From NCBI GenBank assembly GCA_003510435.1, contig DOMK01000010.1, forward strand, positions 41,487 through 105,486: a stretch of 64,000 bases of DNA, in the 5' to 3' direction. Each line of letters starts with the position of its first letter. The stretch's first letter is position 1. Source of the DNA: Candidatus Magasanikiibacteriota bacterium. Lineage in GTDB: Bacteria; Patescibacteriota; Patescibacteriia; Magasanikbacterales; UBA922. The position numbers and the translations under genes were made by a program. Below the pieces are notes generated by a model, which ran no database searches, was not told the origin of the DNA, and saw nothing but the letters and a program-made list of their open reading frames with translations. Positions 1 to 32,472 of this stretch are shown here, one piece after another.

Positions 1-791
1 CTATTCACAAACTAGCTGAACGCACTCCTGGTTTTTCTGGTGCGGATTTGGAAAATTTGTTAAATGAAGCCGCGATCCTAACTGTGAGACGGGAGAAAAA
101 AATAATTGGTGAATCAGAAATTTTGGAAAGTATTGAAAAAGTTTTGCTTGGGCCAGAAAAAAGATCAAAAGTAATGACTGAGAAAGATAGAGAAATGACC
201 GCTTATCACGAAGCCGGCCATGCGATTGTGGGGCATTTTCTCAAGAACTGTGATCCAGTACGCAAGGTGTCAATTATTGGTCGAGGTATGGCTGGTGGTT
301 ATACTTTGTCTATGCCAGAAAAGGATGAGTACTACAAAACTCTGGCCAAGTTTAGAGATGATGTGGCCATGATTCTTGGTGGATATGCCACAGAAAAATT
401 AATCTATGGTGATGATCAATTATCAACCGGACCATCCAGTGATTTGAAAAAGGCGACCCAAATGGCGAGAGCCATGGTAGTGAAATATGGTATGAGTGAA
501 AAACTTGGGCCACGTCAATTTGGAGAAAACGAAGAAATGATTTTCTTAGCGCAAGAAATTCATGAAAAGAAAAATTATTCAGAAAAAGTGGCCGAAGTAA
601 TTGATGCGGAAATTGATAGAATATTGGATGAAGCTTTGCAAACTTCCGTGCGGATTATTAAAGAACATAGAAAACAAATGGATGAATTAGTTAAACATTT
701 GATGGAAAAAGAAACCATTGAACAAGAGGAATTTAGAAGGGTAATGAATGATGGTGTAGAGGAAAAAAAGGACGTGGTAGTAGAAGTGTAA
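1..791 (+). CDS. ftsH: ATP-dependent zinc metalloprotease FtsH, C-terminal part (5' end outside window)
   Basis: HEAGHAIVGH zinc-binding HEXXH motif; M41 peptidase domain architecture; ORF open to window start. Confidence 0.85.
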   Translation, partial: IHKLAERTPGFSGADLENLLNEAAILTVRREKKIIGESEILESIEKVLLGPEKRSKVMTEKDREMTAYHEAGHAIVGHFLKNCDPVRKVSIIGRGMAGGYTLSMPEKDEYYKTLAKFRDDVAMILGGYATEKLIYGDDQLSTGPSSDLKKATQMARAMVVKYGMSEKLGPRQFGENEEMIFLAQEIHEKKNYSEKVAEVIDAEIDRILDEALQTSVRIIKEHRKQMDELVKHLMEKETIEQEEFRRVMNDGVEEKKDVVVEV

Positions 792-856
792 AATGGAGAT
801 AGAAAACAAAAAAAGCTGACAAGACTTACAATGCTTGCAAGGCTTACAAAAATGAA

Positions 857-888
857 AACCACCCCGAGTACTCGGGGTGGGTTTTTGT
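857..888 (+). terminator. rho-independent terminator after ftsH
   Basis: AACCACCCCGAG-ta-CTCGGGGTGG hairpin followed by TTTTTGTTT. Confidence 0.7.
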
Positions 889-941
889 TTAGTTATTTTT
901 TGTTCAGTGAAATCTTTTAATAATCAGTGTAATCAGTGTAT

Positions 942-963
942 AAAAAAACACCTCTAAAAGGTG
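942..963 (-). terminator. rho-independent terminator for the minus-strand GC-rich cassette
   Basis: On the minus strand, CACCTTTTAGAGGTG hairpin followed by TTTTTTT; lies exactly at the GC-rich/AT-rich boundary. Confidence 0.5.
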
Positions 964-1313
964 AAATCCAAGGGAGGAGGGCAGTGAAACGATTATCACT
1001 GCCCAAGCCTCTGGCGGGGGACCTTCCCGCCCGTTGTCGTCAACTACCGCTCGCGCAATAGTCAACAAACGTTTGTCGCTTGTCTGCCCCGACAGGATGT
1101 CGAGGAGCGATGGGTCCGGTGTCTGACTCCGAGGAGGTCCACGGCAGCGCATCACCAGCCTGGCCTGGGCTTGGTGACACGCGTTGGTGTCTCGGAGTCT
1201 CTGAGTTGGAGAACTCTGTGAAGCGTGTCGTTGCCGATGTGCTTCAATACCTTGTGGTCCCCGCTCGGGTAGTGGCTTCGGTCCGTCTCTGGACCTGGCC
1301 TTACCCTTCTTCG

Positions 1314-1671
1314 CTACCGAGCGGGCTCGTCCGGGGGGTTGTCGCCCTCCACTTCGTCGACGTCGCTCCCGCCTGCGCCGTCTCCGGGGTTGTCCTCGGG
1401 GGTGACGAGGAACTCGGTTCCTTCCGGGAAGCAGTTCCCGGGGAAGAAGCGAGGCTCCATTCCCTTGCGCCCGATCGCGAAGTAGATACGTCCCCCGTCG
1501 ACTTCGACCCACGTGGTGCCACAGATGGCACCGAAGGCGGCCTTGGCCTTGCACGTGGCCGAGTACTTGAGGGACCAGTCCCCGTCGAGCAGGTTCAGGC
1601 GGAACCTACCCATCACACTTCCGACCTGGTCGAATTCCGTTTCCTCTTGGAGGACTTTCGCTCCGATCTCC
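1314..1671 (-). CDS. hypothetical protein (~119 aa) in GC-rich island; foreign-type codon usage
   Basis: ORF with very high GC3 (GAC/GTC/TTC/AAG codons); GAGGGAG SD 6 nt before the ATG at 1671 (track start GTG 1697 is also possible); own promoter upstream; no family recognised. Confidence 0.5.
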
Positions 1672-1723
1672 ATTCGGATCTCCCTCAATGCTACCACTTG
1701 TGAGTAGCGTTTCTATTGCACCA

Positions 1724-1752
1724 TTTTTATCATAAATACACAGGTTTGTCAA
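1724..1752 (-). promoter_or_regulatory. sigma70-like promoter for GC-island gene a
   Basis: Minus-sense TTGACA-N17-TAAAAA in the AT-rich flank immediately 5' of the island. Confidence 0.45.
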
Positions 1753-1908
1753 GTCTGGTTTAGTCAAGAATTTAAAAATGTGGTATAATGTAAAATGCTT
1801 GCAAGGCTTACAACGCCTACAAAGCTTACAAAGAAAATATTTAATTTATTGTCTTGTCAGCCTTGTTGGCTTTTTAAGCTTTTATTTTATACTTTTAACT
1901 TCTGTAAT

Positions 1909-2889
1909 ATGAAAACTCCACTCTATCGCGAGGCCATAACTCATAGTTGGCAACTCGTTTGGAAACATAAAATGTTATGGTTATTTGGTTTGTTTGCGGC
2001 TTTTTTGGGTCAGATGGGACTCATGGATTTATTAACCAAAGTAAGTTTTGCTTCGAGCAAATATACTTATCCTAGTTGGGTTTCCTGGCCACAAGTAATG
2101 CAGGATTTGGTTAGTGGTATGGGATTTTTTTCCTTATCTATTGATGGCTGGACTTGGCTAGTTTGGCTTATTCTTATTTTGCTCGGACTGTGTATTACCA
2201 CAGTAGTGGTGGCAGTAGTATCTCAAGGTGCTTTGATTGATGCTTGTGCTCAATCTGCCAAAGATAAAGGTTTGCCCAGTGTTAGTCAGGCTTGGCATGT
2301 GGGTGTAAAACATTTTTGGCCTTTATTTGTTTTGAACTTGTTGAAAAAAATAGTTATGGCGGGTTTGGCTGGAGCGGTTGGGTATTCAGTTTTAAATTTT
2401 GTCTTACAATCTTCTGGCTGGGGTTTTTTGTTATTCCTGGTTTTATTTTTACTCTCGGTTTTGGTTGGTCTAGTTTTATCATTTTTGGTAGTTTACGCAG
2501 CTGGTTATGTGGTAATTGAAAAATATAATTTTAAAGAGGCAGTTGAGGCGGCTTGGATGTTGTTTATTGAACACTGGCTAGTATCAATTGAAGTTGGTTT
2601 GCTAGTTTTATTTTTAAATATTTTATTGGGAATTGTAGTGTTTCTTGGTTTTTGGATATTATTTTTACCAGTAGCTGTGGTTTGGTTTATTTCTGTCTTT
2701 ACTGCCAACTCAGCCTTGTGGATATCTGGCCTACTCGCTGGTATATTAATTTTCTTAGTATTTGTGGTTTGGGTAGGATCAATTTTTTCTGCATTTGTTA
2801 CTTCAATTTGGACTTACTTATTTATGAAAATGCATAAACATGGTATCAAGAGTAGATTATTGCATTGGTCTGGTCATCATAGAATTTAA
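1909..2889 (+). CDS. polytopic membrane protein (DUF975/YciC-like?)
   Basis: Multiple hydrophobic helices; the track start 1795 runs through a repeat element, so an internal ATG at 1909 (MKTPLYREA) was chosen; promoter TAGTCAAG..TGTGGTATAAT at ~1760-1790. Confidence 0.5.
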   Translation: MKTPLYREAITHSWQLVWKHKMLWLFGLFAAFLGQMGLMDLLTKVSFASSKYTYPSWVSWPQVMQDLVSGMGFFSLSIDGWTWLVWLILILLGLCITTVVVAVVSQGALIDACAQSAKDKGLPSVSQAWHVGVKHFWPLFVLNLLKKIVMAGLAGAVGYSVLNFVLQSSGWGFLLFLVLFLLSVLVGLVLSFLVVYAAGYVVIEKYNFKEAVEAAWMLFIEHWLVSIEVGLLVLFLNILLGIVVFLGFWILFLPVAVVWFISVFTANSALWISGLLAGILIFLVFVVWVGSIFSAFVTSIWTYLFMKMHKHGIKSRLLHWSGHHRI

Positions 2890-2905
2890 TTTAGTTTTTT
2901 AAGTT

Positions 2906-4648
2906 ATGTCGGATTTGCCTTCAATCAGTAGTTTGCTTAAACCAAAAAAAGATGAAGAAATGGATGGACAAAATGTTCATCCTAGTTTACATATATCTTC
3001 ATCAGAAGTGGAAGAAAAATTTTCTAAGAAAATGACTCAAGTTGGTCTTAAACAAAAAGAAGAAGAAGCCCAAAGATTGGCTCAGTCTTTAGGTTATCCG
3101 CATATTGATTTGGCCAAGTTTCCTGTGAGTCACGAAGCCTTGCGTCAAGTGCCAAAAGAGGTGGCCGATGAATTGGGTGTAGTGTGTTTTTTTGCTACGT
3201 CAGATGAAGTCCGTCTTGGGGCTCTGGACCCCTCTATGTCAGAGGTACAGGAATTATTACATGAAGTTGAAGAAGATAATCATAGTAATGGGGCAATTTA
3301 TGTGATTTCAGAAAATAGTTTGGATAGTGTTTTAAAATTATATGCCAATTTGCCCGATGTAAAACCCATAAATAAAGATATAGAAGTCAAAGCCGAAGAT
3401 TTGGAAGCCGTACAATCTAATGTAAATGATTTTGCTTCTTTACAAGAGGCTTTAAATAAAAAATCAGCTAGTGATTTATTTATTTTGCTTTTAGGCGCGG
3501 CTCTAAAACTAGAAGCATCAGATCTTCATATTGAAGCTGAGGCAGACAACATTGCTGCTCGGTTACGTTTGGATGGAATGTTGCATGATGCCGCTAATTT
3601 GCCGAGAGAAGATTACAAAAAATTAATCAATCGGATAAAATTAGTTTCTGGTTTAAAGATTAATATAGTTGATAAACCACAAGATGGTCGGTTTACAATT
3701 AATTTGCCCGAAGGTGATGTAGACGTGCGTGTTTCTACCATGCCCACAGTTTATGGTGAAAGTGTTGTCATGCGTTTATTAAGGCAATCTTTATCAGGTT
3801 TGGATTTGGATAAACTAGGTTTGTCTGATGAAGACCGTGAAAAGTTGAAAATTCAAATTGTTCGTCCGACTGGGATGATTATAACCACTGGTCCGACTGG
3901 TTCTGGTAAGACAACAACCATGTATGCAATTTTGAAAATTTTAAATAAACCAGATGTAAAAATAATTACTTTGGAAGATCCAGTAGAATATAAAATGGAA
4001 GGGGTAAATCAAAGCCAAGTGGATGAAAAGAAAGGCTATACTTTTGCCAAGGGCTTAAAATCAATTTTGCGCCAGGATCCAGATATTGCCATGGTGGGAG
4101 AAATTCGTGATTTGGATACAGCTAGTACAGCTGTCCAAGGCGCTCTTACTGGCCATTTGATTTTATCCACTGTTCATACCAACAGTGCAGCTGGTTCGGT
4201 TTCTCGGTTTTTATCTTTTGGTGTAGAAACATTTTATTTAGCCCATGCACTCAATTGTGTAATTGGTCAGAGATTGGTGCGTAAAATTTGTCAGTCTTGT
4301 AAAAAAGTACATGAATTGACTGATAAAGAAAATCAAAGAGTAAAAGATATTATTGCCAATATGCCAGAAGACAAAAAGAAGATTGCGGAGAGTAAATCTT
4401 TTAATTTTTTTGAAAAAGTTGGTTGTGAAAAATGTAATGGTATTGGGTATAAGGGGCAGATAGGTATCTATGAAATTTTGCTTGTGACTCAAGATATAAA
4501 AGACAAAATTTTAGCGCGTAATGTTGCCGAGTATGAAATAGAAAAGACAGCTATCAGCCAGGGTATGAGTACTATGGTTCAGGATGGAGTTTTAAAAGCC
4601 TTGGATGGAATGACTTCTTTGGAAGAAATTTTTAGAGTGATTGAATAA
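2906..4648 (+). CDS. pilB: type IV pilus/type II secretion assembly ATPase (PilB/GspE family)
   Basis: Walker A GPTGSGKTT; T2SSE N-terminal domain; C-terminal CxxC..CxxC zinc motif; 580 aa. Confidence 0.85.
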   Translation: MSDLPSISSLLKPKKDEEMDGQNVHPSLHISSSEVEEKFSKKMTQVGLKQKEEEAQRLAQSLGYPHIDLAKFPVSHEALRQVPKEVADELGVVCFFATSDEVRLGALDPSMSEVQELLHEVEEDNHSNGAIYVISENSLDSVLKLYANLPDVKPINKDIEVKAEDLEAVQSNVNDFASLQEALNKKSASDLFILLLGAALKLEASDLHIEAEADNIAARLRLDGMLHDAANLPREDYKKLINRIKLVSGLKINIVDKPQDGRFTINLPEGDVDVRVSTMPTVYGESVVMRLLRQSLSGLDLDKLGLSDEDREKLKIQIVRPTGMIITTGPTGSGKTTTMYAILKILNKPDVKIITLEDPVEYKMEGVNQSQVDEKKGYTFAKGLKSILRQDPDIAMVGEIRDLDTASTAVQGALTGHLILSTVHTNSAAGSVSRFLSFGVETFYLAHALNCVIGQRLVRKICQSCKKVHELTDKENQRVKDIIANMPEDKKKIAESKSFNFFEKVGCEKCNGIGYKGQIGIYEILLVTQDIKDKILARNVAEYEIEKTAISQGMSTMVQDGVLKALDGMTSLEEIFRVIE

Positions 4649-4684: not shown

Positions 4685-5821
4685 ATGACACCAATGAGAA
4701 AAGAAACAAATCTTGGTAATAATCAACCGGTTCGGCTTTATAAATTTATTGCTCTGACTTTTTTGTTGATTACAATTGCTCTGTTTTGTTTAATTGTCTT
4801 TATGTCTTCCAAAGAAGCTGTAATTACAATCACAACCAAGTCGGATCCAATTGATGCTAACAAGTATGTGGTGGTTGGTCCGAGGGGAGAATGGTCTGGG
4901 GTTGTAACTTCTACAATCGTAATGATGGAAAAAGATTTTAATCCAACTGGTAATCGAGAAGAACCAGCCGTGGCGACTGGAGTGGTGACTTTGTTAAATG
5001 AATCAAATGAAAATCAACCGTTGGTTGCTACCACCAGACTTTTGACTCCAGAAGGGATTTTATTTCGCTTAAAAGACAGAGTATTGGTACCAGCTGGTGG
5101 TACAGTGGAGGCCAATGTTTATGCTGACCAACCTGGAGCTGGTGGAAATATTGGTCCAGTGGAAAAATTTACTATCCCTGGGCTACGCGAAGATACTCAA
5201 AAAGTAATTTATGCTAAGAGTGTGTCGCCAATGTCTGGCGGGGTAAAGGTAATTGGAGTTTTGAGTGAGGTTGATGTAAAAAAATCTGAGGAAGTAATGC
5301 TTGCAACTTTGGAAGAACAAGGAAAAGCATTTTTATCAAAATTAAATATTAGTACTAATACAGTTTATAAAGTTATTGAGAGTAAATTTGAAAACAGTGC
5401 CACAGTCGGTACCGAAGTAGCAGGTTTTAAATTGAAGGGGCAAGCAACTGTTTTGGCAGTATTTTTTGATAATGCTAACGTGGAGACAGAAGCCACCACT
5501 TTACTCAGTAAACGTCTGGTGGATGAAGCAGAAAATTTATCTGAAGAAGGGGCTTCCCATTCAATTGTGTTGGATAGTTATGATCTGGCCAAAGGTACAG
5601 CGGTTTTACAGATTTTTTCCAATGGCAAGGTGAAATTAGATCCAGGTAGTAAACAATTAGATAAAATGGTTTTTTATGGTAAAACAAAAGATGAAGTCAG
5701 ACGCTATTTATTATCTTTAGATCATGTTCAGAGTGTGGATATCAGTTTCAAACCAGCGTGGATGAGGACTGTGCCCCATGTGGCTGACCATGTACAGGTA
5801 ATTGTGAAAGAGGTGGAGTAA
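4685..5821 (+). CDS. hypothetical membrane-anchored protein
   Basis: Single N-terminal TM helix, then a soluble domain; downstream of pilB, so possibly pilus-associated; no motif recognised. Confidence 0.45.
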   Translation: MTPMRKETNLGNNQPVRLYKFIALTFLLITIALFCLIVFMSSKEAVITITTKSDPIDANKYVVVGPRGEWSGVVTSTIVMMEKDFNPTGNREEPAVATGVVTLLNESNENQPLVATTRLLTPEGILFRLKDRVLVPAGGTVEANVYADQPGAGGNIGPVEKFTIPGLREDTQKVIYAKSVSPMSGGVKVIGVLSEVDVKKSEEVMLATLEEQGKAFLSKLNISTNTVYKVIESKFENSATVGTEVAGFKLKGQATVLAVFFDNANVETEATTLLSKRLVDEAENLSEEGASHSIVLDSYDLAKGTAVLQIFSNGKVKLDPGSKQLDKMVFYGKTKDEVRRYLLSLDHVQSVDISFKPAWMRTVPHVADHVQVIVKEVE

Positions 5822-6172: not shown

Positions 6173-6291
6173 ACACTGATTTCACTGATTTTGTGAGCCT
6201 GCCTGTGGGCAGGGATTTCACAGATTATAATAATCAGTGAAATCAATTTATAAATCAGTGCCTGCCTGCGCAGGCAGGTAATCAATGTTAT
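6173..6291. repeat. MITE-like repeat family A (TIR AACATTGATTACACTGATT), two units with GCCTGCC hairpins; ends at the GNAT start codon
   Basis: CACTGATTTCACTGATT .. AATCAGTGAAATCAAT .. AATCAATGTTAT-ATG; copies at 905-941, 13416-13504, 24317-24384, 33034-33085, 39037-39152. Confidence 0.7.
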
Positions 6292-13415: not shown

Positions 13416-13504
13416 ACATTGATTCCATTGATTATTTACTGATTTCGCTGAGTATATCAATTACAATCTGTGTAATCTTTAGTAATCAGTGAAATCAATG
13501 TTAT
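13416..13504. repeat. family A MITE-like element abutting the miaA start
   Basis: GACATTGATTCCATTGATT ... AATCAGTGAAATCAATGTTAT inverted termini; miaB stop TAA lies inside the upstream TGTGGTATAAT -10. Confidence 0.7.
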
Positions 13505-14446
13505 ATGAGAGAAGAAACAAAAAAATTACAAAAATTAATTGTGGTAGTTGGTCCAACTGCTAGTGGCAAGACTAACTGGGCTTTGCGTTTGGCCAAGAAA
13601 TTTAATGGCGATATTATTTCCGCTGATTCAAGGCAAATCTATAAAAAAATGGATATTGGCACAGCCAAAGAGCCTGGTGAATGGCGAAGAAATGGTTTGC
13701 GCAAAACTTACTATATCGAAGATATTCCCCATCATCTAGTTGATTTTCTGGATCCAGGCAAAGCTTTTACAGTGGCAGAATTTAGAGACAAGGCAGTAAA
13801 GTATGTAAAAATGGCGCATGAAGATGGTAAAATGCCGTTGATGGTAGGTGGAACAGGTTTGTATGTTCATTCTTTGGTAGAAAATTTGCAAATTCCTCGC
13901 GTACCGCCAAATAAAAAATTACGTGATAGTTTAGAAGAAAAAAATAATGAAGAATTGATGACTTGGATTACTAGTCTTGACCCAAAGACTGCCGAAACAG
14001 TTGATCCTAATAATAAACGTAGATTAATCCGAGCGCTTGAAGTGTGTATTCTTAGTGGGGTGCCTTTTTCTGAACAACAAATTAAAGGTGATCCATTGTT
14101 TGATATTTTAGAAATTGGGATTGAAGTGGAAAGAGAAACACTTTATGAAAGAATTGATAATCGTGTCCAGAAAATGTTTGATCTTGGTTTGGTAAAAGAA
14201 GTAGAAATTTTATTAAAACAAAAATATTCATGGGAATTACCTTCCATGAGCGGAATTGGTTATCGTCAGTTTAAAGAATATTTTGAAAAGAAAATTTCTT
14301 TGGACGAAGTGAAAGAAAATCTTAAACACGATACCAGAAGATATGCCAAACGACAATTGACTTGGTTTAGGCGAGATGAAAAAATAAAGTGGTGCAAGGA
14401 ATATGAAGAAGCAGAAAAATTGGTAGAAGATTTTTTAAAAAAATAG
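13505..14446 (+). CDS. miaA: tRNA dimethylallyltransferase
   Basis: VVVGPTASGKT P-loop; DSRQIYKKMDIGTAKP motif. Confidence 0.9.
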   Translation: MREETKKLQKLIVVVGPTASGKTNWALRLAKKFNGDIISADSRQIYKKMDIGTAKEPGEWRRNGLRKTYYIEDIPHHLVDFLDPGKAFTVAEFRDKAVKYVKMAHEDGKMPLMVGGTGLYVHSLVENLQIPRVPPNKKLRDSLEEKNNEELMTWITSLDPKTAETVDPNNKRRLIRALEVCILSGVPFSEQQIKGDPLFDILEIGIEVERETLYERIDNRVQKMFDLGLVKEVEILLKQKYSWELPSMSGIGYRQFKEYFEKKISLDEVKENLKHDTRRYAKRQLTWFRRDEKIKWCKEYEEAEKLVEDFLKK

Positions 14447-15225: not shown

Positions 15226-15993
15226 TTATTTTATTTTTTCTTGATACGCTTGCCAACCAGCTTCGCGATATTTTTTAGCTTCGGTCAAAGGATTTTCGGC
15301 TTCATAAATTCCTCTGCCAACGATAATTACATCAGAATTATTTTTTTTGATAACTTTTTCAGGGGTATTGTATTGTTGTCCTAGGGTATCACCACCTTGA
15401 GCTAATTGTACACCTGGTGTCATGTTTACAAAACATGGGTTATCTAATAATTTTTTCATGGTGATAAAACCAATCACAAAATCCTTATTTTCTTCGGCCA
15501 TTTTTAGTGTTTCCTCAGTATACGTACCTTTGGCTAACGTACCTTTGGAACTCATTTCTGCCAAGAGTAATAAGCCTCGGCCTTTGGGTAAACCAATTTC
15601 TTTTAATCCTTGAATAATCCCAGGCCCTGGCACAGTGTGGGCATTGGTAATATGAGACCAATCAGCAATATTATAAATACCATTTTGATATTGATACTTT
15701 ACGGTGTTACCAATATCGGCAAATTTTCTATCTTCAAAAATTAAGAAATTATGTTCTTCTGCTAGTCTTTGTAATTGGATAATTAAATCAGCATCAAAAT
15801 CTTCGATAATATCAATATGGGTTTTTAATACGCAAATTTCTGGACCAAGTTCTTCTGCAATTTTTAATAATTTTTCTTTGGTGACTACATCCGCAGCAAT
15901 GGCCAAATTTGTTTGTTTGGTCTCCATTATTTTAAAAAGCTTTTTGGCGGTGGGATTGGTGCAAAGGTCAGCGCGTTGTTGGTATGTGAACAT
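15226..15993 (-). CDS. pyrF: orotidine 5'-phosphate decarboxylase
   Basis: KTHID and [12 protein letters not shown] motifs. Confidence 0.8.
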
Positions 15994-16003
15994 AATATTT
16001 TGT

Positions 16004-16130
16004 TAATCCCGACCCCGATTCGCATCGGGGAGGGATCCCTTTTAGTGTTTCTAACAAGGGTATTAAAAATACATTTGTTAGTGTGTTGAAAAGGGATTCC
16101 TCGTCGCCCTTTGGGCTCACTCGGAATGAC
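16004..16130. repeat. palindromic repeat family B (ATTCCGAG..GAGGAATCCCTTTT .. AAAAGGGATCCCTC..GGTTCGGGATTA)
   Basis: ~130 nt long imperfect palindrome; full copies at 30265-30392, 31887-32016, 39701-39847; half copies at 7411-7470, 26812-26900, 5832-5873, 51353-51400. Confidence 0.7.
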
Positions 16131-16135
16131 AAGAA

Positions 16136-16768
16136 TTAAACTTGCTTAGATTCAAGAAATTTTTTTCCGTGACCAATTTTGGTATTTATTGGTACATTGT
16201 TTTTGCAGAGAGGACACTCTTCAGCTGAATAATTGGGAATTGTCATTTCTGCTAGTGAAGAGAATGGAACGCCGTACATCTCTGTGTTTATGGTTTGTGG
16301 ATTTTTATTAACCATCACACTAGCCTGAACCACTTCGCCACCTGCTTCTTTTATGGCGTCGACTAATTTTTTTAATGATGACCCTGTTTGTGTAAGATCC
16401 TCAAGTGCCAAGACCTTTTTACCTCTTACGAGATTGTTGTAGTTGCGTCTGGTAAAAAAGGTCAATTTATCATCTTCTTTTTCAGCATAGACACCGAGAA
16501 TTTCTTTGCCTTTGATTTGAGAAAGATGGTAAGCTGTCCATTGAGATAATATTATACCACCCAAAGCCGGGCCAGCTACTACATCAATATCTAAATCTTT
16601 GTATTTCTCTGCAAAAAGTTTACAAACGGCCGATGTCTCTTCAGTGTGGGGGTAGAGAGCATCTTTGTTTACATAAGTATCAAAATGGCCACCAGAAGTT
16701 CCGACAAAATGATCATTATCCAACACAGCTCCAACTTTTTTTAAAATTTCCAAGATATTATTTTCCAT
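16136..16768 (-). CDS. pyrE: orotate phosphoribosyltransferase (type I PRTase) with C-terminal CxxC
   Basis: PRPP-binding motif VLALEDLTQTGSS; position in pyr cluster. Confidence 0.7.
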   Translation of the reverse strand: MENNILEILKKVGAVLDNDHFVGTSGGHFDTYVNKDALYPHTEETSAVCKLFAEKYKDLDIDVVAGPALGGIILSQWTAYHLSQIKGKEILGVYAEKEDDKLTFFTRRNYNNLVRGKKVLALEDLTQTGSSLKKLVDAIKEAGGEVVQASVMVNKNPQTINTEMYGVPFSSLAEMTIPNYSAEECPLCKNNVPINTKIGHGKKFLESKQV

Positions 16769-16819
16769 ATATTTTAAATTAAAAATTAATTATTTTTTTG
16801 AAGGGATTCTCCATTGCGT

Positions 16820-17602
16820 TCAGAATGATACGACAGCACCAGACTTATCTCTGTGATATTTTCCAAATTCAAAAATTTTATTAGCTAATTCACGATTAAC
16901 GACTGGTCCTTCTTTACACATACAAATTCCTAGGTCATCTACTACGCATTGGCCACAAATACCCACACCACATTTCATATAGCGTTCAATACTAACTTCG
17001 CAATCAACATTATATTCATTGCAAATATCTAAAACTTTTTTTTGCATTAGTTCTGGACCACAGGTTACCACTAATTTTTGACACGAATCTGCACTAATAA
17101 TACTTGGTATAAGGTCTGTGACATAACCTTTGTGTCCACGACTGCCATCATCAGTAGCAAGATGTAGAATTAGATTTGGTATTTTTGATAATTTTTCTTC
17201 AAATAATAAATTGTCTTTGGTACGACCGCCAGCGAGGAAATCTATTTTTGCACCGTTTGTCCTTTGAGCCAGTAGACTAAGAGGGGCGGCTCCATAACCA
17301 CCAGCGACCATAATGTAGTGTAAATTTTGGTCAACGGTAAAAGCTGTACCATAAGGTCCAGAAATACCCACGCGGTCGCCAATATTCATTTCAAATAATT
17401 TATTGGTTAATGGACCACGTTTGAAAATTGTTAAACCAAATGTTTGTCCATCGTCAGAAGAAATGGAAAATGGTTTTTGATCAATTCCAGGAATCCAGAG
17501 CATGACGAATTGACCAGGTTTACTTCCCAAATTGAAATTAAAGTAAAAGGTTTTTACAAAAGGATTTTCTTGTTCAATTTTTGAGATTTTTAGAAAGTTC
17601 AT
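16820..17602 (-). CDS. pyrK: dihydroorotate dehydrogenase electron-transfer subunit
   Basis: FAD/NAD-binding fold, C-terminal Cys cluster CGVGICGQC. Confidence 0.8.
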   Translation of the reverse strand: MNFLKISKIEQENPFVKTFYFNFNLGSKPGQFVMLWIPGIDQKPFSISSDDGQTFGLTIFKRGPLTNKLFEMNIGDRVGISGPYGTAFTVDQNLHYIMVAGGYGAAPLSLLAQRTNGAKIDFLAGGRTKDNLLFEEKLSKIPNLILHLATDDGSRGHKGYVTDLIPSIISADSCQKLVVTCGPELMQKKVLDICNEYNVDCEVSIERYMKCGVGICGQCVVDDLGICMCKEGPVVNRELANKIFEFGKYHRDKSGAVVSF

Positions 17603-17719
17603 AAAATTATATACAAATATACGAATTTACGAATTATACGGATGCTATACAAATGTGTATTGCCGAAGTATGTTCGTATAGCATTTGTATAATTCGTATT
17701 GTTAGTATATTCGTATATT

Positions 17720-18628
17720 TTATAAATGAGCAGATCCTCTAATTTCATCTAAATTTTTGATTCCTTCTTCTTTCATAATCACTTCCATTTCATCAGTAAT
17801 TTTTTTGAAAGCGTCAGCACCACGGAAATAGACAGCTGAACCAACACCGAGTAGGGTAGCACCGGCCATAATCATCGCGAGAGCATCTTCGCCAGTCGTG
17901 ATTCCTCCTGTGCCGATAATCGGAATTTTAACTGACTTGTAAATATCATAAACGCATTTAAGGGCAATGGGAAATAAAGCTGGACCAGAGACACCGCCTT
18001 GTTTATTATGAAGAATTGGCCGGCGCGCACGGACATCAATCATCATACCACTAACAGTGTTTACAGCCGTAATAGCATCGGCTCCGCTAGCTTCGGCTGC
18101 CTTGGCAATGGTATCAATATTCCAAGCATTGGGTGAAAGTTTTATAGAAATTGGTACGGTAGATTTCTCTTTTACCGCTTTGGTAATTTTTTCTACCGCT
18201 GAAATGGAATAAGCAAAGGGATCGCCGAATTCTTTACTAACATTGGGACAAGAAATATCAATTTCCAAAAAATCAATTGGCGCTTCACAAATCCGCTCGG
18301 CCATTTCGCCGAATTCTTCTGGTGTACCAGCAAAAATGCTCCCTAAAAGAGGAACATCAGATAATTCTTTAAATTTCTTTAATTCTTCAATGGCTTTATC
18401 AATTCCAGGATTAGATAGTCCGACAGCATTGATAAAAAAATGTTCATAGCCATTCATAGTTGGATTGGGGTGGCCAGTACGCGGTTCTTTGGAAATTGAT
18501 TTGACAGTCACGCCACCACAGCCATTTTTTATAGCATTATTAAGACTGGCACCAGTGACACCGAGAATGCCAGAGGCGACGACAATGGGGTTGGTGAATG
18601 ATTTGCCTAAAAAATTAGTTGTTAACAT
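17720..18628 (-). CDS. pyrD: dihydroorotate dehydrogenase catalytic subunit (class 1B)
   Basis: TIM-barrel DHOD motifs; adjacent to pyrK. Confidence 0.85.
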   Translation of the reverse strand: MLTTNFLGKSFTNPIVVASGILGVTGASLNNAIKNGCGGVTVKSISKEPRTGHPNPTMNGYEHFFINAVGLSNPGIDKAIEELKKFKELSDVPLLGSIFAGTPEEFGEMAERICEAPIDFLEIDISCPNVSKEFGDPFAYSISAVEKITKAVKEKSTVPISIKLSPNAWNIDTIAKAAEASGADAITAVNTVSGMMIDVRARRPILHNKQGGVSGPALFPIALKCVYDIYKSVKIPIIGTGGITTGEDALAMIMAGATLLGVGSAVYFRGADAFKKITDEMEVIMKEEGIKNLDEIRGSAHL

Positions 18629-18740
18629 AATTCCTAATTCACCTAATTTCTAATTCACCTAATAAAATTTCTAATACCCAATTAGTAATTTGATATTGGG
18701 ATTTTTATTAGAAATTAGGTGAATTAGATAATTAGAAATT
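18629..18740. repeat. palindromic repeat family C (CTAATTCACCTAATTTCTAAT) directly 5' of pyrD
   Basis: Inverted copies of TAATTCACCTAATTTCTAAT around an AT-rich centre; second copy at 30878-30986, directly 5' of folA. Confidence 0.65.
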
Positions 18741-18742
18741 TA

Positions 18743-19696
18743 TTATATTTTATTTTCCAGTTCTAATAGCCAAATAATAATCGCTTTTTGAATATGCATT
18801 CTATTTTCTGCTTGATCAAAGATTACAGAATTTTTGTGATCAATGGCTTCACGAGAAATTTCATAACCAATATGACAAGGCATGCAGTGCATAATACCAG
18901 CTTTTGGAGAATAGGTATCAACCAATTCAGCACTCAATTGAAATGGTTTGAAAGTAGCTAAGCGACGATCATATTCAGCCTGGTATTCTGGAATAACTTT
19001 ACCATCTTTGAAAAATTCCATATCAATCCAAGTGTCAGTGTGGACATAATCTGTGTTAGTCATAGCCTCGGCCAAATCAGTCGTGCGTTTTATAAGGCCT
19101 GTGGCATTAGCCAGGTCATTTAATTCTGTATCAACACTTGGTGGATTGGCTTCGGGAGCAGCGATAGCGACTTCAATTCCAAGTTTAGCACAAGCTAATT
19201 GCAAAGTATTGGAAACGTTATTTTCAATTCCTAACCAGGTAACTTTTTTAATATTTTCTAAACCATTAGAATGTTCCATCATAGTCAAGATGTCACCTAG
19301 AGCTTGGCAAGGATGATATTTTTCTGAGCAAGCATCAATTACTGGAATTTTATTTAAGCTAGCAGCAGTCATGACGTCTTCAGCTTTTAAGGCGCGGAAC
19401 ATAAGGACAGCTCCATAACGCATGACGGCTTGAATTTCATCTTTGAAAGCAGTGAGAGCAAATTGTGTATTGCGTGCGTCTAGATATATTCCGTGTCCAC
19501 CCAGTTCTGTCATGCCAGCTTCAAAAGATAGACGAGTACGAGTAGAAGTTTTTTGAAAAAGCATTATTAAAGTTTGATTGTGTAACACATCCACGCTTTC
19601 TCCGGCTTTTCTTTTGGCTTTTAATTTTTGAGCAATATTTAAAATGTCTAACAAATCCTGTTTGGATTGTTCTTTGAGTGAGATGAGGTGACGCAT
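18743..19696 (-). CDS. argF: ornithine (or putrescine) carbamoyltransferase
   Basis: STRTRLSFE carbamoyl-phosphate motif; HCMPC (HCLP-type) rather than the HPLP of ATCase. Confidence 0.75.
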   Translation of the reverse strand: MRHLISLKEQSKQDLLDILNIAQKLKAKRKAGESVDVLHNQTLIMLFQKTSTRTRLSFEAGMTELGGHGIYLDARNTQFALTAFKDEIQAVMRYGAVLMFRALKAEDVMTAASLNKIPVIDACSEKYHPCQALGDILTMMEHSNGLENIKKVTWLGIENNVSNTLQLACAKLGIEVAIAAPEANPPSVDTELNDLANATGLIKRTTDLAEAMTNTDYVHTDTWIDMEFFKDGKVIPEYQAEYDRRLATFKPFQLSAELVDTYSPKAGIMHCMPCHIGYEISREAIDHKNSVIFDQAENRMHIQKAIIIWLLELENKI

Positions 19697-19730
19697 AGGT
19701 TTTGATTTAAAGATTTAATAGATTTAAAAA

Positions 19731-20615
19731 TTAATTTGTCACTACCATTGTTGTTTGTCTTTGTTTAATTTCAGATATTATCATGGCTATAAAAATTAGC
19801 AGGCCACCAATCAAAGTGTGTGAGGTTATTTGTTCATTTAAATATAGATAAGCTACTAAAACTGCAAATAGTGGTTCAAAAGAAAAAATAATAGCGGTTT
19901 TGAGCTCGGTAATATAGCGTTGCATATAGGCTTGAGTAGTATACATATAAGCACTGGCAAAAATTGCACAAAATAAAATAGCTTTCCAAACATTCCAATC
20001 TCCAGAAATTGTTATTCTGTAGTTTGTTATTAGCCCTACTATACCGGTAATTATTCCTACAGTAAATAATTGTGTTATGACAAATAAAGAGGCATTGATG
20101 TTTTTAACTAATTTAGTTATCAAAATTAAATGGGTTGCTAAAGCAAAAGTTGCTAATAATACCCAGACATCACCAATGTTTATGGAAAATTTATTTTTTA
20201 AAGTTAATAAAGCCAAACCTCCTAATGCTAATACTATGGCTATAATCTGGTTTACTTTTGGTAATTTTTTATTGATTACAGAAATAATAATTGGAACTAA
20301 AATTACTACTAAGCCAGTAATAAAACCAGCGTTAGAAGCAGTAGTATATTTTATTCCAGTAGTCTGCAATATAAATCCAGCAGAGAGGATTGTGCCAAGT
20401 AAAATTCCTTTCCACAAAATTTCTTTTGTATATAATTTAAATTTATTTGCAAAGATGATAGCCAACAGAATTGAAGCAATAATAAATCTGATTGAGAGAA
20501 AAGAATAAACGTCAACAATACCCACCGCTTGTTTGGTAAATGAAAAAGTGGCACCCCAAAATAACACGCCCAAGAGTATCATCCAAGTTGCTAGTTTTGA
20601 CTTTTCTATCGTCAT
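19731..20615 (-). CDS. EamA/DMT family transporter
   Basis: ~10 TM helices in two EamA-like repeats; start at MTIEKS gives an ATGA overlap with pyrC. Confidence 0.6.
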   Translation of the reverse strand: MTIEKSKLATWMILLGVLFWGATFSFTKQAVGIVDVYSFLSIRFIIASILLAIIFANKFKLYTKEILWKGILLGTILSAGFILQTTGIKYTTASNAGFITGLVVILVPIIISVINKKLPKVNQIIAIVLALGGLALLTLKNKFSINIGDVWVLLATFALATHLILITKLVKNINASLFVITQLFTVGIITGIVGLITNYRITISGDWNVWKAILFCAIFASAYMYTTQAYMQRYITELKTAIIFSFEPLFAVLVAYLYLNEQITSHTLIGGLLIFIAMIISEIKQRQTTMVVTN

Positions 20616-21796
20616 AAAATAATTACTCTTTGATTTAAAATAGTGGCGATGGGCCAGCCGCGGAGTGATAATCCAACAAATGGACTCCAACCGCATTTAG
20701 TTTTTAAATTTTCATTGGTTACTTCTTTTTCTAGATCCAGATCAATTATAACCAAGTCGTTTGTCTCAGGAATGTTAAAGATTTTTTGGATGTTGAAATG
20801 CGTTAATTCAGTAATTTTTTCTAAGGTAATTTTACCGTTTTTAAACTCATTTAGCAAGAGGGGTAAAGTAGTTTCTAATCCTGGTACGCCTGATGGGGAA
20901 TTGGGATATGGCTTAGCTTTTTCTTCTAGGGTATGTGGGGCATGGTCTGTTCCAATAGTATCAATTGTACCGTCTAAAATGGCTTGCCAGAGGGCTTTTT
21001 GATCGTTTTTGGTACGAAGGGGCGGATTCATCTGCCCCAGGGTCCCTAGGTGATTATAATCATCTTCTGATAGAAATAAATGGTGAGGGGTGACTTCAGC
21101 ATAGATCTTAATACTCTCTAATTTGGCTTGTTTAATCAATTCAATTTCTTCTTTAGTACTGACATGACAGATATAGAGTTTGGTGTTGTATTTTTGAGCA
21201 AGTTTGATGGCTTGAGAAACGGCTGTAATAGCAGCATCTCGTGAGCGTATTTTCGAATGATCTTTTACATTGTTACATTGTCCCATTGTTACATTGTTGT
21301 TTTTAATGACAGCTTCGCTCTCTGCATGTACTGCCACAATCAAATTTAACTCTGCACAGGTTTTAAAAATATTTTCTTGATCTTCAATTTTATCAACTAA
21401 TAAATCACCAGTACTGGCACCCATGAAAAGTTTTACACCAATAATTTCGTTTTTACATTTGGCAAATTCAGTATAATTATTTGGCGTTGCTCCAAGATAT
21501 AAATAATAATTCAAAGGAATATTTATTTCGTCCAATTGTTTATCAATTATTTTTTTCTTGTGCTCAAGTGCTAAGGTGCTTATAGTGCTTGGTGAGTTAT
21601 TAGGCATGTCAAATACTGTAGTGTAACCACCTGCCATGGCAGCTTGCGCACCAGTCTGCCAATTTTCTTTGTGTTCAGATCCTGGAGTACGAAAGTGAAC
21701 GTGAGGATCAATTAAGGCTGGTAATGCTAAGAGATTGCCTTTGATTTCGGGTAAGTCTAATTCAAGAGTCTGATTGTTCCAGGTTTTGATTAACAT
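20612..21796 (-). CDS. pyrC: dihydroorotase
   Basis: DPHVHFR metal-binding motif, amidohydrolase fold. Confidence 0.8.
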   Translation of the reverse strand: MLIKTWNNQTLELDLPEIKGNLLALPALIDPHVHFRTPGSEHKENWQTGAQAAMAGGYTTVFDMPNNSPSTISTLALEHKKKIIDKQLDEINIPLNYYLYLGATPNNYTEFAKCKNEIIGVKLFMGASTGDLLVDKIEDQENIFKTCAELNLIVAVHAESEAVIKNNNVTMGQCNNVKDHSKIRSRDAAITAVSQAIKLAQKYNTKLYICHVSTKEEIELIKQAKLESIKIYAEVTPHHLFLSEDDYNHLGTLGQMNPPLRTKNDQKALWQAILDGTIDTIGTDHAPHTLEEKAKPYPNSPSGVPGLETTLPLLLNEFKNGKITLEKITELTHFNIQKIFNIPETNDLVIIDLDLEKEVTNENLKTKCGWSPFVGLSLRGWPIATILNQRVIIL

Positions 21797-21869
21797 TTTT
21801 CACATATCACGTATCACATATCACGTATCACAGTTGTTATGTGTTACGTGTTTTATGTTACGTGAAAAA
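21797..21869. repeat. palindromic repeat family D (ATCACGTATCACAT) directly 5' of pyrC
   Basis: TCACGTATCACATATCACGTATCAC // GTGTTACGTGTTTTATGTTACGTGA; related copy at 55606-55690, directly 5' of prfA. Confidence 0.6.
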
Positions 21870-22814
21870 TTAATTTGTAATTCGCGTTCCTGATTTACCT
21901 TCTAGTGCACTAGCAAGTTTATTCGGTGAAGTAATGATGGCTTCTTTCCCACCGTTTTCTAAAAAATTAATTACCGCCTGAATTTTTGGTAACATAGAAC
22001 CTTTGGCAAAATGATTTTGTTCAATGTACTTTTTTAATTCCTGAATATTTATTTTTTCTAATTTTTTCTGATCTGGTTTGCCAAAATTTATATAAACATT
22101 ATCCACGGCGGTGGCAATGACAAGAGTGTCGGCTTTTATTTGATTGGCAAGAAGGGCAGAAGCAAAATCTTTATCAATTACTGCTTCGACACCTTTTAAT
22201 TTTCCTCTTTCCTCTACAACTGGAATACCACCGCCACCGCAAGCAATAACAATGGTATTATTTTTTATTAATTCTTGCACAATATCTTTTTCAATTACAT
22301 CAATTGGTTTGGGAGAAGCCACAACTCGACGCCAGCCTCGACCAGCGTCTTCTTCTACTGCCCAGCCATATTTTTTGTACAAAGTTTTGGCTTGAGCTTT
22401 GGTATAAAAAGAGCCAATCGGTTTGGTTGGGTTGTTAAAAGCAGGATCATTTTTGTCCACCAAAACCTGGGTGACAACAGTCACGGCTTTTTTGTTCAAT
22501 TTTTTCTTGGTAATAATATTATCCAAGCTTTGTTGAAGATAAAAACCAATTGCACCTTGAGTTTCTGCATCAGCCGTGTCCAAAGGCACACGATGTAATT
22601 TTAATTGATTAAAACCCAATTCAGATCTTTGCATAATAAAACCAACCTGTGGTCCGTTGCCATGGGTAATAACAATTTCTAAATTTTTGCTGAATAGTGG
22701 AAGCAAAGCTTCGCAAGTTTTTTTTACTTGGAAATATTGGTCTTTTTCGGTTTGGTGTTCTTTATCTTTGATAAGAGCATTACCACCAACAGCGATGACG
22801 ATTCTTTTTGACAT
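21870..22814 (-). CDS. arcC: carbamate kinase
   Basis: N-terminal IVIAVGGNAL, amino-acid kinase fold, ~314 aa. Confidence 0.8.
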   Translation of the reverse strand: MSKRIVIAVGGNALIKDKEHQTEKDQYFQVKKTCEALLPLFSKNLEIVITHGNGPQVGFIMQRSELGFNQLKLHRVPLDTADAETQGAIGFYLQQSLDNIITKKKLNKKAVTVVTQVLVDKNDPAFNNPTKPIGSFYTKAQAKTLYKKYGWAVEEDAGRGWRRVVASPKPIDVIEKDIVQELIKNNTIVIACGGGGIPVVEERGKLKGVEAVIDKDFASALLANQIKADTLVIATAVDNVYINFGKPDQKKLEKINIQELKKYIEQNHFAKGSMLPKIQAVINFLENGGKEAIITSPNKLASALEGKSGTRITN

Positions 22815-22816
22815 AA

Positions 22817-23299
22817 TTAGTTATGTTTGTATTCTTTTATTTCTGTTTGATGAAAAGTTTTTTCACAATAATGGCATCTTAGTTTTATTTCTTCTTTGGA
22901 TTTTATGGTAAGAAATTTACTACTCATGGTTTCGTTATTAGTTATGCATTTTGGATTGGGGCAGACAACGACATATTCAATAATGTCTGGTAAAGTGACA
23001 TGAAATTTTTTGACCACTTCATAATTTTTGATAATATTAATTGTACCATCTGGCGCCAAAATTGCAATCCGATTAATTTGTTCCGGAGTTAGTTCCAAGT
23101 CTTCAACTTTTATTAAATCTTTGAACTTCATAGCCTTGCTGGGTAAGTTCAAACCAACAGTGACGAGCTTGTTGTGATCTGCTAAATTGAGCAAACGGAT
23201 AATTTTCAAGGCATGGCCAGCGGTAATGTGGTCAATGACTGTGCCGTCTTTGATGGCGGTGACCAGGAGCTGTTTGGAATTTTCAGTTTTTTGTGGCAT
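22817..23299 (-). CDS. pyrI: aspartate carbamoyltransferase regulatory subunit
   Basis: C-terminal zinc domain CPNPKC..CHYC. Confidence 0.85.
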   Translation of the reverse strand: MPQKTENSKQLLVTAIKDGTVIDHITAGHALKIIRLLNLADHNKLVTVGLNLPSKAMKFKDLIKVEDLELTPEQINRIAILAPDGTINIIKNYEVVKKFHVTLPDIIEYVVVCPNPKCITNNETMSSKFLTIKSKEEIKLRCHYCEKTFHQTEIKEYKHN

Positions 23300-23395
23300 A
23301 TAAAATAGGTTATTTATTTAAAGTAATTTTATTCGACCGATAACCCGTTTTTGTAATTGTTGTAGGTGTATGGTTATTGGCGTCAGGAGTCAGGA

Positions 23396-24316
23396 TTAAA
23401 GTTTTCCCAATACTAATCCAAGTAACGCTTGTCTCACATACAAACCATTTTCCGCTTGTTCAAAATAATAGGCATGTTTGGTCGCATCAACATCAGTCGT
23501 GATTTCATTGACGCGTGGCAAGGGATGCATGATGCGTAAATTTGGTTTGGCTTTGTCGAGCATTTTGGCTTTGAGAATAAAAACATTTTTTACCCGTTCA
23601 TATTCCATCGGGTCGGCAAATCTTTCACCTTGAATTCTGGTCATGTACAAAATATCTACTTTGTTAACTACTTCTTCTATTTTTTTGTGTAATGAAAATT
23701 TAACTTTTTTGGCTTTTAATTCATCACAAATATATTCTGGCATTTGTAAATTATCTGGAGCCACAAAATATAATTTAGCATTGAAATGAACTAGAGCTTG
23801 AGCTAGAGAATGAGTAGTCCGACCATATTTCAAATCGCCAACTAAGGCAATTTCCAAACCTTCAAGTTTTTTCTGACATTCTTGGATAGTAAATAAATCT
23901 AATAGAGTTTGCGTTGGATGTTGGTTGGCACCATCACCGCCATTTAAAATTGGTTTGTCGGTCGCTTCACTAGCGCGTCTAGCTGCACCCTCAATCGGAT
24001 GACGCATGGCAACTACATCTACATATTGGCCAATGATTTTAATGGCATCGTAAAGGGTTTCACCTTTTTTGGCCGAAGTGACGCCAGGATCTGCAAAGCC
24101 AACGACTTTTCCACCCAAGCGATTCATAGCGGTTTCAAAAGATAAGCGAGTTCTAGTAGATGGTTCAAAAAAACAACTGCCCATGACTTTGTTTTCCAAT
24201 AATTTTGGTTGAGGTTTTTGTTTTAGTTCGCGCGCGATTTTTAAAATATGCAACATTTCTGGTTTGGTTAACTCAGAAATGGAGATGATGTCCCTACCTT
24301 TGAAGTTTAATGCCAT
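23396..24316 (-). CDS. pyrB: aspartate carbamoyltransferase catalytic subunit
   Basis: STRTRLSFE and HPLPR motifs. Confidence 0.9.
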
Positions 24317-24515
24317 ATAACATTGATTACACTGATTTAATACTTGCCTGAGGGCAAGGATTTCACAGATTGTGATTGAATAAATTTTTTTAATATAATT
24401 CTGTTTTAATCCGTTTGTATCTGTTTAATCTGCTGTTTCTAATTCGTTTGGTTGTAATTGTTTACAGCAGATTGAACAGATTATAACAAATTATAATGGA
24501 GCAAAATAAATTAAT

Positions 24516-30259: not shown

Positions 30260-30367
30260 AGTGTCCGTAATTCCGAGCGTAGCGAGGAATCCCTTTCTAA
30301 CGCACGGAAAGTTGTTATAAATAAAATTAATTTCAATGCAAAGTTTAATGCATTAAAAAGGGATCCC

Positions 30368-32453: not shown

Positions 32454-32472
32454 AGCATTGATTTAGACAGAT

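Follow-up and report, generated by a model that had tools for sequence, protein, structure and literature searches.

A GC-rich orphan gene and a conserved structured RNA form a probable lineage-specific transcription unit in AT-rich Magasanikbacteria-type genomes

The 64,000-nucleotide (nt) stretch of contig DOMK01000010.1 analysed here (GenBank assembly GCA_003510435.1, Candidatus Magasanikiibacteriota bacterium), hereafter the window, carries at positions 942-1752 a compact cassette rich in guanine plus cytosine (GC), which we call cassette a. This cassette is probably a single vertically inherited, lineage-specific transcription unit of Magasanikbacteria-type bacteria of the Candidate Phyla Radiation (CPR), not imported DNA, in which a GC-rich mRNA dependent on a Shine-Dalgarno (SD) sequence is joined to a structured 3' RNA. 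The unit is old and belongs to one group of ultra-small groundwater bacteria.

The composition of the cassette sets it apart. A first-pass annotation of this DNA had estimated the genome at about 30% GC, which is too low for the window as a whole (36.4%), and the block at 966-1700 at about 60%, which is close to the measured 61.8%. Calculated per 100 nt, the GC fraction lies between 0.53 and 0.70 across approximately 950-1700 and near 0.3 on either side, with sharp edges. The elements of the cassette, together with the divergent promoter beside it, are as follows.

942-963, minus strand: intrinsic terminator found by a terminator scan, stem CACCU-UUUAG-AGGUG (963-949) followed by U7, in AT-rich DNA.
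966-1313, minus strand: structured RNA domain, either a 3' untranslated region (UTR) or a processed non-coding RNA (ncRNA), about 345 nt (348-nt tail), 60% GC, about 12 helices.
978-1003, minus strand: 3'-terminal hairpin GGGCAGUGA-uaaucgu-UCACUGCCC, followed by a C/U-rich, CCUCC-type stretch at 966-977.
1314-1673 including the stop codon, minus strand: protein gene, ATG start, 119 amino acids (aa), 64% GC.
1674-1716, minus strand: 5' UTR, its start placed about 7 nt past the -10 element; the GC-rich sequence begins here.
1723-1752, minus strand: sigma-70-type promoter of cassette a, found by a consensus scan.
1761-1789, plus strand: divergent promoter TAGTCA-17-TGGTATAAT, found by scan, which drives the membrane-protein gene at 1909-2889.

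At the three codon positions of the open reading frame (ORF) the GC fractions are 0.64, 0.46 and 0.83, and the last of these (GC3) is 14 standard deviations above the 44 host genes of the window (0.27 +/- 0.04; range 0.19-0.36). Profiling GC and GC3 along the window, as had been proposed, thus makes the block stand out from the host genes. The minus-strand ORF that the first-pass annotation had picked out is upheld as a gene, although its GC3 falls short of the near 100% given at the time. Long alternative ORFs at 904-1554 (minus strand) and 1080-1703 (plus strand) vary freely in length among orthologues and their frames are not conserved, in agreement with their earlier dismissal as artefacts.

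Judged from its pattern of substitution, the 119-codon ORF is a real gene. Comparisons were made with related loci (L003, L004, L007, L009, L133, L137 and others) that had been recovered through the protein. Differences between the ORFs of the window and L003 fall on the three codon positions as 34/28/61, and 33 of the 70 identical residues are encoded by different codons. By the Nei-Gojobori method, the ratio of non-synonymous to synonymous divergence (dN/dS) is 0.09 at a synonymous divergence (dS) of 0.41 for the closest pair, L009 and L137, and 0.22-0.35 for pairs in the middle range. The motifs DGDW, VGAIC-TTW, PRFFPG, FP-GT and GDGA are retained down to 31% identity, and motifs, length and SD spacing are kept throughout the six protein clusters in which the gene occurs.

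The product is acidic (isoelectric point 4.3), with an alpha/beta core, a disordered acidic tail of Gly, Asp, Glu and Pro at its end and, by eye, no signal peptide. Profile searches against Pfam, PHROGs, NCBIfam, PADLOC and the PDB gave no match. An AlphaFold2 (AF2) model built from six sequences, with a predicted local distance difference test (pLDDT) score of 76.6, has structural neighbours that nearly all adopt the C-type-lectin-like or Link-module fold, at weak resemblance. This fold, common to the neighbours of the model, is that of C-type-lectin-like domain (CTLD) and Link-module proteins such as TvpA of a diversity-generating retroelement (DGR; PDB 2y3c) and the Bdellovibrio fibre tip Bd2740 (8oks), and ligand-binding CTLD proteins evolve fast, as the 119-aa protein does. 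The model would thus make the product a small, acidic, fast-evolving alpha/beta protein, weakly C-type-lectin-like. A role as the variable target protein of a DGR was considered and rejected: no template-repeat/variable-repeat pair was found within or near the ORF, and no reverse transcriptase in the window.

The signals around the gene were all found where the first-pass annotation had described them. The promoter joins a -35 element TTGACA (1752-1747) to an extended -10 element TATGATAAAAAT (1734-1723) over a spacer of 17-18 nt and lies in the AT-rich flank, and its sequence CTTGACAAA..TATGrTAAAAAT is kept in L003, L004, L007, L133 and L137. The 5' UTR contains a small hairpin, GCTAC..GTAGC, and the SD, GAGGGAG at 1680-1686, stands 6 nt upstream of the ATG; the SDs of orthologues read AGGAGG or GAGGAGG, the exception being the L133 lineage with a weak GGGG alone. 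The terminator is kept in L003, L004, L009 and L137. One promoter, one terminator and no internal signals were found in the cassette. The promoter stands back to back with that of the membrane-protein gene, the two -35 elements being 8 bp apart in an arrangement common to all related loci, which hints at co-regulation of two fast-evolving genes.

On the evidence of covariation, the tail that follows the ORF is an evolutionarily conserved structured RNA that matches no Rfam family and is previously undescribed. It had been reported as a GC-rich non-coding tail containing the hairpin at 978-1003 and the palindrome ACAAACGTTTGT, all of which is correct; what that reading missed is that the tail is a conserved structured RNA with covariation. 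Against dinucleotide shuffles, the fold z score of the tail lies between -6.6 and -7.0 in the window and is -6.0 in L003, compared with -4.9 for the antisense strand and -0.4 for the ORF alone. RNAalifold reports 17-22 pairs with compensatory changes. In an alignment of six sequences, standard pairs occupy 90% of the cells, as against 34-48% when the partners are slid by 1-3 columns, and 18 pairs are changed on both sides, as against 7.3 +/- 1.9 in column shuffles, with none of 500 shuffles reaching 18. Many of the pairs are G-U, found on the ORF strand only; since the opposite strand would give A-C, the RNA is sense to the ORF.

Several hairpins of the tail are conserved. They include GGUCC-AGAGAY-GGACC, a long hairpin of 14 bp, ACGCGUGUCA...UGAUGCGC, with seven covarying pairs, CCYCGAC..GUCGGGG, a GNRA-capped hairpin (GCGA or GCAA) and GGCGGG..CCCGCC. 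Across five full-length tails, the 3'-terminal hairpin at 978-1003 is invariant or changed from A-U to G-U. A covariance model of the tail, R1, matches the window at 957-1316 with 321 bits and nowhere else; it recovers all members, and in 80 unrelated control loci it found a trivial hairpin only. A scan of the whole window at Rfam gathering thresholds returned one tRNA and nothing else, a search of 850-1850 with the 4227 models of Rfam 15 at E up to 10 gave sub-threshold chance hits, none of them over the tail, and ARAGORN found no transfer-messenger RNA (tmRNA). On these negative Rfam and ARAGORN scans, identities as RNase P, tmRNA or 6S RNA were rejected. A pattern search of genome contigs for the terminal hairpin produced unrelated hairpins from many phyla only, and complements of two conserved unpaired tail segments, sought as possible targets in trans, occur in the window at chance frequency.

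How well the tail is conserved depends on the pair compared. In the comparison of the window with L004, no other element of the locus is as well conserved as the tail (94.2% identity, compared with 88.5% for ftsH, 69.6% for the membrane-protein gene and 65.8% for the ORF). Between L009 and L137 the pattern is reversed (ORF 90%, ftsH about 80%, tail 68%), and this reversal indicates a reassortment of ORF and tail alleles, for which homologous recombination between strains is presumably responsible. The ORF, the tail and the adjacent membrane-protein gene together are a variable locus.

The second main observation concerns translation signals. Of the 44 host genes in the window, one has GGAG, GAGG or AGGA at -20 to -5, and in related genomes the counts are 1 of 13 (L004) and 0 of 7 (L007), while the orthologues of cassette a there carry an SD. 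The description of this genome as SD-less therefore holds, with an SD-like motif in all four of the cassettes that the first-pass annotation had listed as sharing one architecture: GAGGGAG in a, AAGGAGA in b, GGAGGG in c and AGGTGAT in d. The three others are the following.

41043-42084, plus strand: cassette b, with promoter TTGACA-17-TATAGT, SD AAGGAGA, a short tail and an AT-rich terminator.
44542-46475, plus strand: cassette c, with perfect promoter TTGACA-17-TGGTATAAT, SD GGAGGG and an AT-rich terminator at 46446-46470.
51513-52165, minus strand: cassette d, with promoter TTGACA-17-TGGTATAAA (by eye), SD AGGTGAT and a terminator at 51547-51513.

Cassettes c and d do repeat the architecture of a, whereas b is only mildly GC-rich: its gene (41155-41955) encodes a 266-aa S-adenosylmethionine-dependent methyltransferase at 46% GC and a GC3 of 0.47. 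In cassette c, an ORF at 44637-46187 (57% GC, GC3 0.71) encodes a 516-aa multi-pass membrane protein that is an ORFan, followed by a GC-rich tail of about 170 nt with a fold z score of -3.7. The ORF of cassette d (51696-52079; 64% GC, GC3 0.89) encodes a 127-aa ORFan and has a tail of about 110 nt; no homologues of this protein were found, and its exact product is absent from the records under the chosen start codon. Neither blastn-short nor model R1 found sequence shared among the tails of a to d, and proteins a and d show no relationship. L007 has an extra GC-rich cassette (4730-5640) at a site where the window and L004 have none; behind a TTGACA promoter it encodes a 215-aa ORFan (GC3 0.79), and it closes with a short tail and a terminator that is AT-rich. 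Because this one lies elsewhere, GC-rich cassettes appear to be a variable, lineage-wide feature. Between the threonyl-tRNA synthetase (ThrRS) gene and this extra cassette, the minus strand of L007 has an intergenic stretch of about 150 nt (4380-4530) that is GC-richer and contains hairpins; a gene caller placed a 29-aa 'gene' in it, and it is maybe another small RNA.

A precedent for such a division exists in the Bacteroidia, which sequester their anti-SD yet retain a strong SD on a few regulated genes, rpsU among them. The likeness lies in an SD-poor genome with a handful of strong-SD genes; the difference is that the SD-led genes here do not encode ribosomal proteins but are GC-rich ORFans. 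A tRNA-Leu(CAG) gene at 58566-58650 is the sole RNA gene that was detected in the window, and no rRNA gene was found in the related loci either. This tRNA reads CUG and could be relevant to translating GC-rich cassettes in a host whose GC3 is 0.27. Within the Parcubacteria the anti-SD is patchy, missing from about half of the 16S genes, mostly in lineages that lack uL1, and the presence of uL1 correlates with its retention (PMC9297842). As the window contains a uL1 gene, it is plausible that this lineage has kept its anti-SD.

Taken together, these features suggest the following course of expression. From a strong host sigma-70 promoter, a single GC-rich RNA would be transcribed as far as a host-type intrinsic terminator; its 5' part would serve as an SD-led mRNA for the 119-aa protein and its last 345 nt or so as a folded RNA domain. 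The GC-richness of the tail may reflect a need for stable folding in an AT-rich organism, and in the ORF a high GC content at all three codon positions would have withstood AT pressure while synonymous sites underwent more than one substitution each. A structured GC-rich mRNA would be unable to use the A/U-rich, SD-independent initiation of the host, so that cassette a would rely on its SD, and cassettes a, b, c and d would make up an expression class of their own that depends on the SD. Most likely the 3' domain acts on its own transcript, where it could block 3' exonucleases or attack by RNases. In some alleles the CCUCC-type 3' end may also mask the SD and so gate translation: the stretch at 966-977 is able to pair with it, at a probability of 0.85-1.0 in the window, 0.2-0.6 in L003, 0.3-0.4 in L004 and 0 in L137 and L007, and since the pairing is strong in the window only, we raise this as a possibility. 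Alternatively, the 3' RNA might be released as a stable ncRNA that partners the acidic protein encoded upstream. Our best guess from the sequence is an mRNA whose 3' RNA domain acts in cis or is processed, and which belongs to an SD-dependent expression class.

Two groups of known RNAs resemble such a transcript. Large GC-rich ncRNAs of AT-rich bacteria, among them OLE, GOLLD, ROOL, HEARO and raiA (Rfam), share with the tail a size of hundreds of nucleotides, a GC content above that of the genome, many covarying helices, a GNRA loop and a narrow lineage; the tail differs in being fused to the 3' end of an mRNA, in having no promoter of its own and in following a coding part that is equally GC-rich. 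Dual-function RNAs and 3'-UTR domains, represented by RNAIII of Staphylococcus aureus, SgrS/SgrT and small RNAs derived from 3' UTRs such as CpxQ, likewise combine in one transcript a small ORF and a conserved structured RNA under constraints of its own. The RNA of the cassette is larger than these (about 345 nt and about 12 helices), and no target complementarity was found in the window.

Several points weigh against the interpretation of the cassette as a single inherited transcription unit. Co-transcription, translation and any role for the tail are all inferred from the sequence. Any selection that maintains the GC content of the ORF would need a cause other than excess RNA structure, which was rejected because the ORF RNA is not unusually structured (z -0.4). 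L007, the deepest lineage, differs in its tail, which is less GC-rich and goes unrecognised by the covariance model, and between L009 and L137 no part is conserved as poorly as the tail; conservation of the tail is for these reasons allele-dependent. With six distinct tail sequences in total the covariation statistics are modest, and related sequences may exceed column shuffles. Pairing of the SD with the 3' end is not conserved. Finally, the cassette may have come from a high-GC donor long ago and have been maintained since.

The distribution of the cassette bears on this last point. A word-indexed search of 5.8 billion protein clusters returned one relative besides the protein itself. HMMER, run exhaustively with a profile over 1.84 billion representatives, gave four proteins at E up to 0.001, and a profile search of the large database (about 15 billion proteins) gave a total of six clusters, of which the sole one with a named source is labelled Candidatus Magasanikiibacteriota. 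All six lie at the same locus, which consists of a T2SSE ATPase gene, a membrane protein of about 326 aa, the divergently transcribed cassette and a convergent ftsH. The related contigs come from several samples and include a metagenome-assembled genome (MAG) at NCBI (GCA_049287025.1) and contigs of 68.9 kb and 337 kb from the Joint Genome Institute (JGI). A metagenome scan returned only L007 and L008, loci already known. The cassette is present in every related locus recovered, a result to be read with the fact that the loci were found through the protein and cassette-free relatives could be missed. No relatives of cassettes a, c or d were found in viral contigs, plasmids or phages, and protein searches found no homologue of the cassette a protein in high-GC taxa. 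Searches of the literature turned up neither GC-rich cassettes nor this RNA for Magasanikbacteria or Parcubacteria.

The explanation that survives best beside our own is horizontal gene transfer (HGT), in which a gene came, along with its own SD, 3' UTR and hairpin terminator, from a high-GC, SD-using donor, an actinobacterium or the host of the CPR cell, and was placed behind a host promoter. We regard this as unlikely, though it has real attractions: the composition, the periodicity GC3 > GC1 > GC2, amino acids rich in Gly, Ala, Arg and Pro and the strong SD all resemble a high-GC organism, the GC-rich segment and a complete 5' UTR-ORF-3' UTR unit cover the same stretch, and the cassettes differ between genomes, L007 having its extra one at another site. 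HGT into Patescibacteria is, moreover, documented (PMC12455944). A sharp discontinuity in GC and codon usage, ORFan content and variable cassette content are features that cassette a shares with genomic islands. It differs from them in occupying one locus in all relatives found, in having no donor homologues or mobility genes and in showing no drift towards host composition. The Streptomyces-like import implied by the first-pass annotation is not supported, all relatives found being confined to six syntenic clusters in Magasanikbacteria-type genomes. Between the window and L003, the flanking proteins are 53% and 60% identical and the cassette protein 59-63%, a match which argues that the cassette diverged along with its neighbours. 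Nor is there a vehicle in view: integrase, transposase and reverse transcriptase genes were not found among the 54 window ORFs scanned. A 19-nt repeat, ATGCTTGCAAGGCTTACAA, flanks cassette a on both sides; it was rejected as a target-site duplication, since copies are scattered over the contig as members of a dispersed family of short tandem intergenic repeats.

The persistence of the composition is the main reason against a recent Streptomyces-like import. Orthologous ORFs have 57-64% GC and a GC3 of 0.63-0.83, and their tails 50-62% GC; the genomes that contain them have about 37-38% GC, with a GC3 of 0.17-0.34 in the other genes. For most orthologue pairs dS ranges from about 1 to saturation (Nei-Gojobori). 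The amelioration model for compositional islands derived from HGT, that of Lawrence and Ochman as cited in PMC12455944, would lead one to expect a foreign gene to have converged on host composition long ago, which is the opposite of what is seen. Because GC3 persists while synonymous sites are saturated, the GC content appears to be a maintained trait and not that of un-ameliorated foreign DNA, and either selection or a local bias would hold it up. A single ancient transfer into the ancestor of the clade is possible, yet it would not explain why the GC was retained.

Still less probable is a mobile or exchangeable cassette of the integron kind, in which recombination would take place at the 3' hairpin ending ...TGCCC and fixed sites would exchange their ORFs. 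Such a process would account for the reassortment of ORF and tail (tail 94% and ORF 66% between the window and L004; ORF 90% and tail 68% between L009 and L137), a mosaicism equally explained by homologous recombination among related strains. It would also fit the occupation of different sites in different genomes and the observation, made by eye, that in a, b and c the GC-rich segment ends with a hairpin whose 3' arm is TGCCC, beside a C/U-rich stretch. The TGCCC motif followed by a CCUCC-type (YCC) stretch was nevertheless rejected as a common recombination or processing site, with eight matches in the window and two of them at cassette ends. Like integron cassettes, these are compact single-ORF units of ORFan content that end in an imperfect hairpin; unlike them, they come without IntI, an array or attC core sites, have their own promoters and terminators and are dispersed in both orientations. 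At the boundary ...UCACUGCCCUCCUCCCUUGGAUUU no GTTRRRY core and no attC-type R''/L''-L'/R' sites were seen by inspection, no dedicated attC model having been run. The tails share no sequence, model R1 has no second copy in the window, and no integrase or recombinase was found among the 54 ORFs.

More speculative again, and very improbable in our estimation, is the proposal that cassettes a, c and d and the others in relatives are a dedicated class whose composition, codon usage and translation signals were selected for work outside the AT-rich, SD-less regime, in the extreme case as T-DNA-like 'export' genes or RNAs tuned to be expressed in the bacterium that carries the episymbiont, a GC-rich host that uses SDs. 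In that case the structured 3' RNA would be a module for stability or transfer, and the locus does adjoin pilus-type secretion or uptake genes.

That the whole 735-nt block is one large ncRNA and the 119-codon ORF a chance frame has, if anything, slighter prospects. In its favour, several frames of this GC-rich DNA contain long ORFs, the tail clearly belongs to an RNA element and the protein has no known domain. The ORF itself, however, shows the third-position excess of substitutions and the low dN/dS reported above, conserved motifs, length and SD spacing and a confident AF2 core, and its segment has no excess RNA structure, the alternative frames being unconserved. An assembly chimera of reads from a GC-rich organism with an AT-rich contig, a concern raised by the first-pass annotation, by the sharp compositional switch at both edges and by short contigs of one related lineage that break inside the tail, has next to no chance of being correct, because a MEGAHIT contig from a groundwater metagenome in the European Nucleotide Archive is 100% identical to window 1-1811 and spans both junctions, a JGI contig from a different pipeline is 99.95% identical to window 1182-3032 across one of them, the same junction architecture recurs in no fewer than five further lineages, which differ in sample and assembler and include the NCBI MAG and the 68.9-kb JGI contig, and promoter and terminator fit the unit exactly. 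The short contigs just mentioned, L131-L136, are six independently assembled sequences of one lineage that end within the tail RNA or just past the ORF, which suggests strain-level heterogeneity or a coverage problem at a GC-rich locus.

The window also contains the housekeeping genes of a bacterium with a small genome, which include FtsH, a pilus-type T2SSE ATPase, ThrRS, GyrB, FtsW, ribosomal proteins, RF1 and RNase J. The neighbour of cassette a (1909-2889, plus strand) encodes a 326-aa multi-pass membrane protein that evolves fast (70% identity to L004, compared with 88% for ftsH). A near-complete set of genes for pyrimidines and thymidylate is found at 15229-24316 and 29582-33596, comprising orotidine monophosphate decarboxylase, a phosphoribosyltransferase, dihydroorotate dehydrogenase with an Fe-S/NAD subunit, an amidohydrolase, two genes of the catalytic aspartate carbamoyltransferase type and PyrI, together with thymidylate kinase, dihydrofolate reductase, ThyA, dUTPase and dCMP deaminase. 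CPR bacteria usually have no nucleotide synthesis, and such a set is unusual there. Among the housekeeping genes, a P63C-domain protein is encoded at 60681-61682, and a protein with a Kazal-type inhibitor domain and DUF6970 at 36622-37434.

Families of intergenic tandem repeats with units of 8-9 nt, of the types GCTTACAA, AATCAGTG and AAGGAGTAAGG, occur at 801-858, 1792-1831, 38455-38494 and 40042-40081; at 915-944, 6225-6254, 13477-13506, 24318-24343 and 39039-39083; and at 15141, 49887, 52319 and 62411-62461. Those of the AAGGAGTAAGG type often stand beside a palindrome, CCTGCCTGCGCAGGCAGG (6259-6278 and 52349-52366). The repeats lie near promoters and terminators, are found in a related genome as well (L004, 8400-8444) and may be protein-binding sites.

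What is new here is the combination of a structured RNA and an ORFan gene with an unexplained, maintained dichotomy in composition and translation. To our knowledge almost no ncRNAs of the CPR are known beyond the universal ones, and the cassette adds a structured RNA of about 345 nt with covariation support from this radiation. It also runs cleanly counter to the routine rule by which atypical GC is taken as a sign of recent HGT, with a GC3 of 0.63-0.83 beside a host value of about 0.27 at saturated synonymous divergence, and a retention of GC on this scale implies selection or a local bias acting on nucleotide composition. Host genes that have no SD next to GC-rich genes with a strong one point to two regimes of translation initiation within one reduced genome, which bears on how the SD-poor ribosomes of CPR bacteria choose their mRNAs and on the question whether a small regulon is what the anti-SD is retained for. 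Should the function prove to relate to interaction with a host, as a variable, recombining locus, a pilus-type ATPase and a membrane protein as neighbours and a protein of lectin-like fold might lead one to consider, the locus would offer a handle on CPR episymbiosis.

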